Part shown: positions 22,155 through 28,477 of the stretch, piece after piece | Layout of the letters: every line of letters begins with the position of its first letter | Numbering within the stretch: position 1 is the stretch's first letter | Sequence record: NZ_CP104589.1 | Origin: a plasmid | DNA length: 64,000 nt | Direction: 5' to 3' (one strand) | Translations under genes and position numbers: made by a program | Notes under the pieces: generated by a model | What the model saw: only the letters and a program-made list of their open reading frames with translations | The model's database searches: none | What the model was told of the DNA's origin: nothing

Positions 22155-22179
22155 TGTCGTTTTCAGAAGACGGCTGCAC
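22155..22179. repeat. class 1 integron IRi (25 bp)
   Basis: TGTCGTTTTCAGAAGACGGCTGCAC. Confidence 0.75.
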
Positions 22180-22356
22180 TGAACGTCAGAAGCCGACTGC
22201 ACTATAGCAGCGGAGGGGTTGGATCCATCAGGCAACGACGGGCTGCTGCCGGCCATCAGCGGACGCAGGGAGGACTTTCCGCAACCGGCCGTTCGATGCG
22301 GCACCGATGGCCTTCGCGCAGGGGTAGTGAATCCGCCAGGATTGACTTGCGCTGCC

Positions 22357-23370
22357 CTACCTCTCACTAGTGAGGGGCGGCAGCGCATCAAGCGGTGAGC
22401 GCACTCCGGCACCGCCAACTTTCAGCACATGCGTGTAAATCATCGTCGTAGAGACGTCGGAATGGCCGAGCAGATCCTGCACGGTTCGAATGTCGTAACC
22501 GCTGCGGAGCAAGGCCGTCGCGAACGAGTGGCGGAGGGTGTGCGGTGTGGCGGGCTTCGTGATGCCTGCTTGTTCTACGGCACGTTTGAAGGCGCGCTGA
22601 AAGGTCTGGTCATACATGTGATGGCGACGCACGACACCGCTCCGTGGATCGGTCGAATGCGTGTGCTGCGCAAAAACCCAGAACCACGGCCAGGAATGCC
22701 CGGCGCGCGGATACTTCCGCTCAAGGGCGTCGGGAAGCGCAACGCCGCTGCGGCCCTCGGCCTGGTCCTTCAGCCACCATGCCCGTGCACGCGACAGCTG
22801 CTCGCGCAGGCTGGGTGCCAAGCTCTCGGGTAACATCAAGGCCCGATCCTTGGAGCCCTTGCCCTCCCGCACGATGATCGTGCCGTGATCGAAATCCAGA
22901 TCCTTGACCCGCAGTTGCAAACCCTCACTGATCCGCATGCCCGTTCCATACAGAAGCTGGGCGAACAAACGATGCTCGCCTTCCAGAAAACCGAGGATGC
23001 GAACCACTTCATCCGGGGTCAGCACCACCGGCAAGCGCCGCGACGGCCGAGGTCTTCCGATCTCCTGAAGCCAGGGCAGATCCGTGCACAGCACCTTGCC
23101 GTAGAAGAACAGCAAGGCCGCCAATGCCTGACGATGCGTGGAGACCGAAACCTTGCGCTCGTTCGCCAGCCAGGACAGAAATGCCTCGACTTCGCTGCTG
23201 CCCAAGGTTGCCGGGTGACGCACACCGTGGAAACGGATGAAGGCACGAACCCAGTGGACATAAGCCTGTTCGGTTGGTAAGCTGTAATGCAAGTAGCGTA
23301 TGCGCTCACGCAACTGGTCCAGAACCTTGACCGAACGCAGCGGTGGTAACGGCGCAGTGGCGGTTTTCAT
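22357..23370 (-). CDS. intI1: class 1 integron integrase IntI1
   Basis: 337 aa; [30 protein letters not shown]...[12 protein letters not shown]...[12 protein letters not shown] matches IntI1. Confidence 0.95.
23255..23283 (+). promoter_or_regulatory. integron cassette promoter Pc (weak PcW-type hexamers)
   Basis: TGGACA-N17-TAAGCT inside the intI1 coding region, oriented toward cassettes. Confidence 0.6.
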
Positions 23371-23444
23371 GGCTTGTTATGACTGTTTTTTTGTACAGTC
23401 TATGCCTCGGGCATCCAAGCAGCAAGCGCGTTACGCCGTGGGTC

Positions 23445-23510
23445 GATGTTTGATGTTATGGAGCAGCAACGATGTTACGCAGCAGGGCAGTCGCCCTAAA
23501 ACAAAGTTAG
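23445..23510 (+). other. attI1 recombination site
   Basis: ...ATGTTATGGAGCAGCAACGATGTTACGCAGCAGGGCAGTCGCCCTAAAACAAAGTTAG, canonical attI1 3' end immediately before first cassette. Confidence 0.65.
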
Positions 23511-23515
23511 CGCCC

Positions 23516-23920
23516 ATGGAAGGTATCAGCCACATCACGCTTATTGTCCGCGACCTCTCGCGCATGACCACCTTCCTTTGCGATGGTCTCGGTGCGCGAG
23601 AGGTTTATGACAGTGCTGGCCACAATTACTCGCTTTCCCGCGAGAAATTCTTTGTCCTTGGTGGCGTTTGGTTGGCCGCTATGGAGGGAGTGCCGCCATC
23701 TGAGCGCTCCTATCAGCATGTCGCCTTTCGGGTGAGTGAGTCAGATCTTGCCGTATATCAGGCAAGACTTGGGTCGCTGGGCGTGGAGATTCGCCCACCC
23801 AGGCCACGCGTGAATGGAGAGGGGCTGTCCCTGTACTTCTATGATTTTGACAACCATCTGTTTGAGCTGCACACCGGCACATTGGAGCAGCGCCTTGCCA
23901 GGTACGGAGCTGGGCGCTAA
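23516..23920 (+). CDS. fos: Fos-family (FosA/FosC2/FosE-like) fosfomycin thiol transferase cassette
   Basis: 134 aa; HITLIVRDL, YQHVAFRVSESD, LSLYFYDFDNHLFELHTGTL align with FosA metal-binding and K-loop regions; first cassette after attI1. Confidence 0.75.
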   Translation: MEGISHITLIVRDLSRMTTFLCDGLGAREVYDSAGHNYSLSREKFFVLGGVWLAAMEGVPPSERSYQHVAFRVSESDLAVYQARLGSLGVEIRPPRPRVNGEGLSLYFYDFDNHLFELHTGTLEQRLARYGAGR

Positions 23921-23992
23921 CAATTCATTCAAGCCGAAGCCGCTTCGCGGCTCGGCTTAATTCAGGCGTTATGCCGCACTCACCCCCATGGA
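23921..23992 (+). other. attC of fos cassette
   Basis: TAACAATTC...imperfect palindrome GCCGAAGCCGCTTCGCGGCTCGGC...GTTATG; boundary before blaVIM. Confidence 0.5.
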
Positions 23993-23998
23993 GTTTTG

Positions 23999-26337: not shown

Positions 26338-26396
26338 CAATTCGCTGCAGGCGCGACGGCCCTGACGGGCCGCGGCCTGAGCTCAAACGTTAAACA
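26338..26396 (+). other. attC of blaOXA-10-family cassette
   Basis: TAACAATTCGCTGCAGGCGCGACGGCCCTGACGGGCCGCGGCCTGAGCTCAAACGTTAAAC. Confidence 0.5.
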
Positions 26397-26398
26397 TC

Positions 26399-27190
26399 AT
26401 GAGGGAAGCGGTGATCGCCGAAGTATCGACTCAACTATCAGAGGTAGTTGGCGTCATCGAGCGCCATCTCGAACCGACGTTGCTGGCCGTACATTTGTAC
26501 GGCTCCGCAGTGGATGGCGGCCTGAAGCCACACAGTGATATTGATTTGCTGGTTACGGTGACCGTAAGGCTTGATGAAACAACGCGGCGAGCTTTGATCA
26601 ACGACCTTTTGGAAACTTCGGCTTCCCCTGGAGAGAGCGAGATTCTCCGCGCTGTAGAAGTCACCATTGTTGTGCACGACGACATCATTCCGTGGCGTTA
26701 TCCAGCTAAGCGCGAACTGCAATTTGGAGAATGGCAGCGCAATGACATTCTTGCAGGTATCTTCGAGCCAGCCACGATCGACATTGATCTGGCTATCTTG
26801 CTGACAAAAGCAAGAGAACATAGCGTTGCCTTGGTAGGTCCAGCGGCGGAGGAACTCTTTGATCCGGTTCCTGAACAGGATCTATTTGAGGCGCTAAATG
26901 AAACCTTAACGCTATGGAACTCGCCGCCCGACTGGGCTGGCGATGAGCGAAATGTAGTGCTTACGTTGTCCCGCATTTGGTACAGCGCAGTAACCGGCAA
27001 AATCGCGCCGAAGGATGTCGCTGCCGACTGGGCAATGGAGCGCCTGCCGGCCCAGTATCAGCCCGTCATACTTGAAGCTAGACAGGCTTATCTTGGACAA
27101 GAAGAAGATCGCTTGGCCTCCCGCGCAGATCAGTTGGAAGAATTTGTTCACTACGTGAAAGGCGAGATCACCAAGGTAGTCGGCAAATAA
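26399..27190 (+). CDS. aadA1: aminoglycoside 3''-adenylyltransferase AadA1
   Basis: 263 aa; MREAVIAEVSTQLSEVVGVIERHLEPTLLAVHLYGSAVDGGLKPHSDIDLLV..., matches AadA1. Confidence 0.9.
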   Translation: MREAVIAEVSTQLSEVVGVIERHLEPTLLAVHLYGSAVDGGLKPHSDIDLLVTVTVRLDETTRRALINDLLETSASPGESEILRAVEVTIVVHDDIIPWRYPAKRELQFGEWQRNDILAGIFEPATIDIDLAILLTKAREHSVALVGPAAEELFDPVPEQDLFEALNETLTLWNSPPDWAGDERNVVLTLSRIWYSAVTGKIAPKDVAADWAMERLPAQYQPVILEARQAYLGQEEDRLASRADQLEEFVHYVKGEITKVVGK

Positions 27191-27250
27191 TGTCTAAAAC
27201 AAAGTTAGATGCCAGATTTGGCGTTGCGTATGCTCACAGAAAATCGACAG
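27191..27250 (+). other. atypical cassette junction downstream of aadA1 (attI1-like end, not the usual aadA1 attC)
   Basis: GGCAAATAATGTCTAAAACAAAGTTAGATGCC: the CTAAAACAAAGTTAG string is the attI1 3' end rather than the aadA1 59-be. Confidence 0.4.
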
Positions 27251-27318
27251 CCGCAAGACTGTTTTTGGCAACTCATAGCCACCACTATTTCTCCTTCATA
27301 CCGTAGAGGAGATTGCAC

Positions 27319-27651
27319 GTGAAGAACTGGCTCTTTCTGGCTATTGCAATATTTGGTGAGGTCGTCGCAACTTCCGCACTGAAGTCCAGCCATGGATTCA
27401 CCAAGTTAGTTCCTTCTGTTGTAGTTGTGGCTGGCTACGGGCTTGCGTTCTATTTCCTCTCTCTCGCACTCAAGTCCATCCCGGTCGGCATTGCTTATGC
27501 TGTTTGGGCTGGCCTCGGCATCGTACTTGTGGCAGCTATCGCTTGGATCTTCCATGGCCAGAAACTAGACTTGTGGGCGTTCGTTGGCATGGGACTTATC
27601 GTTAGTGGCGTCGCCGTTCTAAATCTGCTATCCAAGGTCAGCGCACATTGA
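27319..27651 (+). CDS. qac: SMR-family quaternary ammonium efflux protein (QacE/QacF/QacH-like, full length)
   Basis: About 110 aa, four TM helices; [21 protein letters not shown] closely parallels QacE N-terminus; a C-terminus intact (not qacEdelta1); GTG start. Confidence 0.8.
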
Positions 27652-27657
27652 TCGGGC

Positions 27658-28477
27658 GGCACTGTTGCAAATAGTCGGTGGTGATAAACTTATCATCCCC
27701 TTTTGCTGATGGAGCTGCACATGAACCCATTCAAAGGCCGGCATTTTCAGCGTGACATCATTCTGTGGGCCGTACGCTGGTACTGCAAATACGGCATCAG
27801 TTACCGTGAGCTGCAGGAGATGCTGGCTGAACGCGGAGTGAATGTCGATCACTCCACGATTTACCGCTGGGTTCAGCGTTATGCGCCTGAAATGGAAAAA
27901 CGGCTGCGCTGGTACTGGCGTAACCCTTCCGATCTTTGCCCGTGGCACATGGATGAAACCTACGTGAAGGTCAATGGCCGCTGGGCGTATCTGTACCGGG
28001 CCGTCGACAGCCGGGGCCGCACTGTCGATTTTTATCTCTCCTCCCGTCGTAACAGCAAAGCTGCATACCGGTTTCTGGGTAAAATCCTCAACAACGTGAA
28101 GAAGTGGCAGATCCCGCGATTCATCAACACGGATAAAGCGCCCGCCTATGGTCGCGCGCTTGCTCTGCTCAAACGCGAAGGCCGGTGCCCGTCTGACGTT
28201 GAACACCGACAGATTAAGTACCGGAACAACGTGATTGAATGCGATCATGGCAAACTGAAACGGATAATCGGCGCCACGCTGGGATTTAAATCCATGAAGA
28301 CGGCTTACGCCACCATCAAAGGTATTGAGGTGATGCGTGCACTACGCAAAGGCCAGGCCTCAGCATTTTATTATGGTGATCCCCTGGGCGAAATGCGCCT
28401 GGTAAGCAGAGTTTTTGAAATGTAAGGCCTTTGAATAAGACAAAAGGCTGCCTCATCGCTAACTTTGCAACAGTGCC
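27658..28477. mobile_element. IS26 (IS6 family), 820 bp
   Basis: 14-bp IRs GGCACTGTTGCAAA at 27658-27671 and inverted at 28464-28477; flanking 8 bp differ (gatcgggc versus gctttgca), so no TSD. Confidence 0.95.
27721..28425 (+). CDS. tnp26: IS26 transposase Tnp26
   Basis: 234 aa MNPFKGRHFQRDIILWAVRWYCKYGISYRELQEM...LVSRVFEM, identical to IS26 Tnp from memory. Confidence 0.95.
   Translation: MNPFKGRHFQRDIILWAVRWYCKYGISYRELQEMLAERGVNVDHSTIYRWVQRYAPEMEKRLRWYWRNPSDLCPWHMDETYVKVNGRWAYLYRAVDSRGRTVDFYLSSRRNSKAAYRFLGKILNNVKKWQIPRFINTDKAPAYGRALALLKREGRCPSDVEHRQIKYRNNVIECDHGKLKRIIGATLGFKSMKTAYATIKGIEVMRALRKGQASAFYYGDPLGEMRLVSRVFEM

Follow-up and report, generated by a model that had tools for sequence, protein, structure and literature searches.

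What is a class 1 integron that ends in an insertion sequence, and how did the unusual gene pair at that end arise? The question is raised by positions 22155-28477 of a 64,000-nt stretch of the plasmid record NZ_CP104589.1, read on one strand (hereafter the window; features lie on its plus strand unless marked minus). This segment holds a multidrug-resistance class 1 integron with a VIM-84 carbapenemase, terminating at an IS26 breakpoint. The structure is that of an integron already published from Pseudomonas aeruginosa plasmids of Wuhan, and only a few small details are new. Wang et al. (2023; PMC10580930) described a class 1 integron in which fosE precedes blaVIM-84, the second cassette, and aac(6')-Ib4, blaOXA-101 and 'ant1' (that is, aadA1) come after it. 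The integron was derived there from In2021, with qacEdelta1 and sul1 lost to IS26, and its carrier was given as Tn1403 on the plasmids pWTJH2 and pWTJH32, of about 100 kb, which also hold Tn5563a. Every point of this description is found in the window, including a Tn5563a copy at 29568-35822. The likeness extends over the five named cassette genes, Tn1403, the IS26-associated loss and Tn5563a, and no difference can be demonstrated. Hence, what the region shows is very probably the left part of an In2021-lineage class 1 integron carried by Tn1403; it matches that of pWTJH2/pWTJH32 and includes a fused aadA1/qacL pair and a loss made by IS26.

A class 1 integron with six genes

The 5' end carries the features that define a class 1 integron. 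The 25-bp outer inverted repeat (IR) IRi (TGTCGTTTTCAGAAGACGGCTGCAC) lies at 22155-22179 and is followed by intI1 (22357-23370, minus strand), whose 337-residue product scores 797.5 bits against NF011946 (cut-off 435) and, from residues 32 and 39 of the translation, is the variant IntI1 P32_H39. Beside the cassette promoter Pc, which lies within intI1, is an attI1 crossover of the form AAACAAAG followed by TTRRRY. The right end of attI1 (23493-23510) reads CCCTAAAACAAAG up to G23506 and TTAG from T23507, the crossover falling between these two positions. The remaining class 1 features, namely the 3' conserved segment (3'-CS, qacEdelta1-sul1) and IRt with the tni module, are wanting: the 64-kb window contains no sul1 start, no IRt and no second terminal IR of Tn1403, qacEdelta1 itself not having been searched for. 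The first-pass annotation, made from the letters alone, had called both sul1 and the 3'-CS absent, and to this extent it stands. In the sister integron of pWTJH36, the 3'-CS occupies the place taken here by IS26. Its lack in the window is a secondary loss and not evidence against class 1 membership.

The promoter had been described as a weak PcW. The PcW hexamers are indeed kept (-35 TGGACA and -10 TAAGCT, with a 17-bp spacer ending in TGG; 23255-23283), but they are combined with an extended -10 TGN motif (ttGgTAAGCT, 23275-23283), which makes the promoter PcW-TGN-10. The second promoter, P2 (23374-23399), has the hexamers TTGTTA and TACAGT separated by 14 bp, with no GGG insertion, and is thus the inactive form. 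According to Jove et al. (2010; Table 1), where the Pc hexamers are also defined, an active P2 needs a 17-bp spacer. In the same work, the TGN motif raised PcW strength 15-fold, and the excision activity of IntI1 P32_H39 was 336-fold lower. Therefore, the array stands under a moderately strong promoter paired with a sluggish integrase.

Gene families were assigned with curated NCBIfam models, and FosX/FosE, VIM, AAC(6')-Ib, the OXA-10 family, AadA1, QacL and the IS6 transposase all scored above their cut-offs; cassette boundaries were read from core sites. The fosE cassette (23507-23968, 462 bp, gene 23516-23920) has its own attC and is 100% identical to annotated fosE cassettes. It is followed by the blaVIM-84 cassette (23969-24877, 909 bp, gene 23999-24799), an aac(6')-Ib4 cassette (24878-25516, gene 24902-25456) encoding the Ser variant with the motif QSLAN, and a blaOXA-101 cassette with an intact attC (25517-26389, gene 25537-26337), the latter allele being named from NCBIfam and the pWTJH36 annotation. 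The last two are an aadA1 cassette without a functional attC (26390-27204, 815 bp, gene 26399-27190) and a qacL cassette whose attC was removed by IS26 (27205-27657, gene 27319-27651). The qacL gene is full length, with 110 codons translated and a score of 227 bits against NF000067. The initial reading of a VIM-2-like carbapenemase integron with the order fos, VIM, aac(6')-Ib Ser variant, OXA-10-family and aadA1 was therefore correct, down to the two beta-lactamase families, as was its recognition of a full-length qacF/H-like small multidrug resistance gene, now named qacL. Its count of five cassettes was one short: qacL is itself a gene cassette, fused to aadA1 and no substitute for the 3'-CS, and the array comprises six genes.

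Against the VIM-2 reference, the carbapenemase carries Q60R and R205L. Its translation has R60, L205 and D117, and differs from the annotated VIM-85 at one position (D117N). VIM-84 is defined as VIM-24 (VIM-2 with R205L) plus Q60R with D117 retained (PMC10580930), and this is the allele of the window. The identical 909-bp cassette (100%) occurs in three other contexts (CP146842.1, JALKHE010000002.1 and JALKHD010000045.1); therefore, the allele is not restricted to the Wuhan plasmids. In one of these, blaVIM-84 is the sole cassette of a Tn402-like integron beside tniC-tniQBA on a 49.7-kb plasmid, and the other two contexts are arrays of dfrB, aac(6')-Ib and blaVIM-84, of which one lies on a chromosome contig of 5.69 Mb. 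The blaVIM-84 cassette is thus demonstrably mobile.

A downstream attC with R'' and R' boxes and a hairpin is found after fosE, blaVIM-84, aac(6')-Ib4 and blaOXA-101, and not after aadA1 or qacL. The bottom strands of the four sites fold at -15.8, -15.2, -25.8 and -17.8 kcal/mol, respectively. R'' pairs with R' in the blaOXA-101, blaVIM-84 and aac(6')-Ib4 folds, and the minimum-energy fold of the fosE site consists of the central stem only. The blaVIM-84 attC folds no better than shuffled sequence (z = -0.68). Overall, Pc would drive the co-transcription of all six genes, and the first four should stay excisable by IntI1. Because both lack a usable attC, aadA1 and qacL would be locked in place.

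The closest relatives are the IncP-2 megaplasmids pWTJH36 and pWTJH6 (NZ_CP104591 and NZ_CP104587), which carry blaVIM-85. They share with the window the stretch from the Tn1403 terminal IR through intI1 and again that from blaVIM to 6 bp past qacL, the aadA1/qacL junction included. Unlike the window, they have no fosE, encode N117 in VIM, continue from an intact qacL attC into qacEdelta1-sul1 and have no IS26 there. Between the Tn1403 end (18418) and 6 bp past qacL, pWTJH36, annotated with blaVIM-85, aac(6')-Ib4, blaOXA-101, aadA1 and qacL, is identical to the window except for the 462-bp fosE cassette and three single-nucleotide polymorphisms over about 8.8 kb. These lie at 19586 (tnpA), 22134 (the res region, 21 bp before IRi) and 24347 (VIM). 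The last, the only one in the array, changes residue 117 from Asp in the window to Asn in pWTJH36.

The junction between aadA1 and qacL

Close after the aadA1 stop codon (27188-27190), the array has CTAAAACAAAGTTAG (27194-27208) in place of a normal attC. The sequence beyond the stop reads TGTCTAAAACAAAG followed by TTAGATGCC. By alignment, the 17-nt site (27192-27208) joins GTCTAA, from the R'' box of the aadA1 attC, to AACAAAG and TTAG, the right end of attI1. An attI1-like end had been proposed for this place, and the site indeed matches attI1 at 15 of 15 nt. Its fold reaches -0.9 kcal/mol versus -18.8 for the normal aadA1 attC, with no attC hairpin. The normal aadA1-qacL junction, as in sul3-type integrons, has a full attC running from GTCTAACAATTCG to CTCAAGCG before TTAG and is 41 bp longer. 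The aadA1 junction therefore reads as a true attC/attI1 hybrid, of the same kind as that of the blaOXA-10/aadA1 pair.

This hybrid is rare. It was found in two of about 782 plasmid records with aadA1 beside qacL, which are pWTJH36 and pWTJH6. It was absent from the best-ranked of 406 aadA1-qacL places in complete E. coli genomes, all of which showed normal two-piece junctions; a hybrid would have outscored these and headed the ranking. Exact-pattern scans for the junction in species-representative genomes and metagenomes gave no match. Neither was any literature on fused cassettes or on In2021 found beyond PMC10580930. As a separate observation, qacL is omitted from that paper's account of both the blaVIM-84 and the blaVIM-85 integrons, and the RefSeq annotation of pWTJH36 places it between aadA1 and qacEdelta1.

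When the attI1 end and the qacL start were combined into one chimeric query, exact single-piece matches were obtained in at least 11 plasmids, spanning Aeromonas, Escherichia, Shewanella, Klebsiella, Salmonella and Vibrio; therefore, integrons with qacL as first cassette exist. One of these plasmids, pR148 (NC_019380), has the array qacL, blaOXA-10, aadA1. Its junction between blaOXA-10 and aadA1 reads GGTGGCTAAAACAAAG followed by TTAAACATC, and the part at 4061-4085 of the examined stretch (GGCTAAAACAAAG before TTAAAC) is an attC/attI1 hybrid of the window's design. In both cases, the upstream cassette ends at the R'' CTAA and is joined to AACAAAG and TT of attI1, followed by a cassette known from the first position after attI1. 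The blaOXA-10/aadA1 junction occurs in about 306 plasmid records from many genera. It differs from the window in its partners, the blaOXA-101 attC of the window being intact and the aadA1/qacL version being rare. Because the blaOXA-10/aadA1 pair is built alike, the window junction adds a new, rare case to a kind of cassette fusion that is already known. As such, it is the sole mildly new element of the region.

The same gene order, aadA1 then qacL (formerly qacH), is known from sul3-type class 1 integrons such as that of pSE08-00436-1, with one nucleotide of difference in the aligned qacL cassette. These integrons likewise have a non-canonical 3' end in place of qacEdelta1-sul1. In contrast to the window, they have a normal 60-bp aadA1 attC, keep the qacL attC and lead on to an IS256-family element and sul3 rather than to IS26.

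How could the hybrid have arisen? The simplest and most likely origin would be that the aadA1 attC was joined, inside the CTAA common to both sites, to attI1 in an integron with qacL first. It is most unlikely that the short junction is instead an internally deleted attC with a few point changes that resembles attI1 by chance. Such a deletion would account for the ends of the site, since the normal attC has the same GTCTAA and GTTAG and only the six bases AACAAA between them differ. However, AACAAA is not obtainable by simple deletion of the normal attC, the nearest product being GTCTAAAACTCAAGCGTTAG, and a simple internal deletion is rejected on these grounds. Chance would also have to produce the complete match to attI1, in the face of an exact attI1-qacL parent junction and of the independent blaOXA-10/aadA1 fusion, in which AACAAAG is likewise inserted at CTAA.

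With the join between attC and attI1 retained, its chemistry can be considered. In both fusions, the break directly follows CTAA in the R'' box of the attC and CCCTAA in the L box of attI1, a position that mirrors the IntI1 cut at the R box, between RYYYAA and C. It is conceivable, if speculative, that IntI1 left these hybrid junctions behind when, on rare occasions, it exchanged strands of a double-stranded attC and of attI1 at the "wrong" boxes, R'' and L. Alternatively, they could stem from chance joining at a 4-nt microhomology.

The IS26 breakpoint

Downstream of qacL lies a complete, 820-bp IS26 (27658-28477) with its transposase gene tnp26 (27724-28425; IS6-family model NF033587, 275.6 bits) and both of the 14-bp terminal IRs that define it (GGCACTGTTGCAAA). 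It starts 6 bp past the qacL stop codon, exactly where pWTJH36 runs into the qacL attC and then into qacEdelta1-sul1. No 8-bp target-site duplication, such as a simple insertion leaves, is present at IS26, the flanks being GATCGGGC and GCTTTGCA, from unrelated DNA. On its other side is the 3' part of higA (28478-28664), the last 187 bp of a 312-bp gene that is intact in pWTJH17 and pVIM-20710; the first 125 bp are missing. The earlier description of this element, with its position behind the qac stop, its lack of a duplication and its truncation of a higA-like gene, was accurate throughout. Beyond higA is the 5' part of a plasmid replication-protein gene (28849-29567), interrupted by Tn5563a, whose counterpart in pVIM-20710 is annotated as a 450-residue replication protein.

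The window holds this one IS26 only, and a partner IS26 with reciprocal 8-bp flanks was sought there in vain. Since IRt, sul1 and another copy of either the Tn1403 IR or IS26 are all missing from the window, IS26 marks the breakpoint at which the remainder of the integron was lost together with the right arm of Tn1403. In the proposed course of events, the loss of the qacL attC, the 3'-CS, everything further along the integron and the right half of Tn1403 would be the work of a single IS26, which joined the array to the truncated higA next to the Tn5563a-interrupted replication gene. Either an intramolecular replicative transposition that deleted adjacent DNA or recombination between a pair of IS26 copies would be the likely route. 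An IS26 in the qacL attC with a target-site duplication would read IS26 followed by GATCGGGCTGGCATCTAAC, and an IS26 in higA would read CAACGAGCTTTGCA followed by the left terminal IR of IS26.

A plasmid of the same hospital, pWTJH17, carries the identical segment of higA and the Tn5563a-interrupted replication gene immediately past the IRt of a complex integron region, and it has several IS26 copies. This arrangement makes an adjacent deletion within one molecule plausible; identical junctions would result from a cointegrate or from recombination between two copies of IS26. As for pWTJH17 itself, it was rejected as the direct ancestor through a deletion from qacL to higA: its resistance region has blaAFM-3 and other arrays, and no VIM array. 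Tentatively, one may think instead of IS26 having fused two replicons, a Tn1403/In2021 plasmid and a plasmid or segment with higA and the replication gene, with one IS26 lost later and no deletion within a single molecule. We consider this possible, if doubtful. It would fit the right flank, a maintenance and replication module (higA plus replication gene) seen in unrelated small plasmids such as pVIM-20710, and a separate iteron-flanked candidate origin at 48478-49148, beside which this module resembles a second, defunct replicon. The missing target-site duplication and the abundance of IS26 in pWTJH17 also speak for it. On the other hand, the window has one IS26 only, and pWTJH17 already has the same module at the IRt end of a complex integron, so that a one-molecule ancestor and an adjacent deletion explain the structure equally well. 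The first-pass annotation had invoked IS26-mediated deletion or cointegration, which is a reasonable inference that a window with a single IS26 cannot settle.

Several points weigh against the view of the region as the pWTJH2/pWTJH32 integron with a fused aadA1/qacL pair and an IS26-made loss. The identity with these plasmids (CP104585/CP104589) rests on the description in PMC10580930 and not on an alignment, and that account mentions neither qacL and the hybrid junction nor the Pc variant and the higA breakpoint. In addition, neither IS26 junction occurs in any plasmid record searched: the IS26-higA junction is absent, and a qacL-IS26 query gave other IS26 positions near qacL only. Nor does the window hold another IS26 copy that would single out one type of event. 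Finally, the origin of the hybrid is read from sequence only, and a 4-nt overlap cannot separate an integrase event from microhomology joining. Misassembly, with repeats collapsed at IS26 or attC sites, is an extremely improbable source of the junctions. Such sites are classic places of error in short-read data; however, two complete plasmids assembled independently of each other, pWTJH36 and pWTJH6, have the very same aadA1/qacL hybrid, the loss of the 3'-CS to IS26 was reported for two plasmids (PMC10580930), and the IS26 is complete with both IRs.

In two other plasmids, integron ends lie near the same higA. In pWTJH17 (about 11718-11745 of the examined stretch), the IRt is about 130 bp upstream of it, and in the Enterobacter blaVIM-1 plasmid pVIM-20710 (3576-5187 of the examined stretch), an intI1/IRi end is about 290 bp upstream. 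The site upstream of higA looks like a recurrent target of Tn402-family elements.

Carrier, surroundings and meaning

On its left, the integron adjoins the tnpR of a Tn1403-type transposon. The 38-bp terminal IR of this Tn21/Tn501-group carrier lies at 18419-18456, and plasmid matches to the tnpA-tnpR module begin at 18417/18418. It is followed by tnpA (18452-21418, minus strand), encoding a 988-residue Tn3-family transposase with the Pfam domains DDE_Tnp_Tn3 and DUF4158 in a module that is 100% identical in many Pseudomonas megaplasmids. The tnpR gene (21422-21982, minus strand) encodes a resolvase of 186 residues, annotated in pWTJH36 as "recombinase family protein"; its NCBIfam serine-recombinase matches are weak and below cut-off. 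Between tnpR and the integron, a 172-bp remnant (21983-22154, no strand assigned) would belong to the res region, the assignment of res subsites being inferred, so that 172 bp separate the tnpR start from IRi upstream of it. The same orientation of tnpA and tnpR, a res region upstream of tnpR and a 38-bp IR are those of the Tn1403/Tn21-Tn501 type. The name Tn1403 was taken from PMC10580930 and secondary literature and not from an alignment with AF313472. In the literature, Tn1403 and other Tn1013-like carriers belong to the Tn21/Tn501 group and hold their integrons within res, and the proposed insertion in the res site of a Tn21-subfamily transposon holds on this basis. As in these carriers, tnpA and tnpR are codirectional, the IR measures 38 bp and the integron lies just upstream of tnpR. 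Unlike them, the window has the left arm only, without the remaining part of res, the cargo genes, Tn5393 or the right IR, and with one IR copy there is no complete transposable unit. Both the integron and Tn1403, being one-ended, would not transpose as units, and their spread would now depend on the plasmid, IS26 and cassette excision.

Within the res remnant, between the tnpR start and IRi, a 43-nt stretch (22007-22049) is 88% complementary to the Tn5563a IR at 29571-29613 and 83% identical to the one at 35772-35819, and resembles a relic or a shared Tn3-family end inside the res region.

The Tn5563a-like mercury transposon at 29568-35822, named after PMC10580930, has 43-nt IRs, a long resolvase, an RHH/PIN toxin-antitoxin pair and tnpA. 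Its IRs are 98% complementary, and its flanks, GATACC versus CCACC, show no obvious 5-bp duplication. Such unequal flanks fit the Tn5563a-mediated inversion reported between pWTJH2 and pWTJH32 (PMC10580930). Further right, at 48478-49148, at least 10 copies of a CTACAGATTCAATG-containing repeat form two clusters and overlap the start of a 345-residue open reading frame (49007-50044). Such an arrangement is suggestive of an iteron-type origin of replication, in which case the replication gene linked to higA would be a second, defunct replicon. A perfect tandem duplication of a 37-nt unit (GGCGATTTCACGGTGAAATTTGGCAGAAGGGTGGCCA) lies at 63908-63981. To the left of Tn1403, positions 1-18416 encode helicases, a CbbQ-like AAA protein, a DUF3150 protein and a VWA protein. 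With 1-22154 as query, the best plasmid match, a Stutzerimonas stutzeri plasmid, covers 29% at 87% identity and no record covers 80%; therefore, this backbone is poorly represented in the plasmid collection.

In clinical terms, the region is a previously reported carbapenemase platform from hospital P. aeruginosa; it is plasmid-borne and also carries determinants for fosfomycin, aminoglycosides, an oxacillinase and disinfectants. What is added here is the overlooked qacL, a promoter stronger than a weak PcW coupled to a low-activity integrase, and evidence for the fixation of the last two genes while blaVIM-84 stays free. A rather strong promoter with an integrase of low activity favours stable, well-expressed arrays. 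Exchange by IntI1 at the wrong boxes, if it took place, would provide a site-specific route by which cassettes are fused and immobilised. As a second, rare example of an attC/attI1 hybrid fusion, the aadA1/qacL pair could help to work out how such fusions form.

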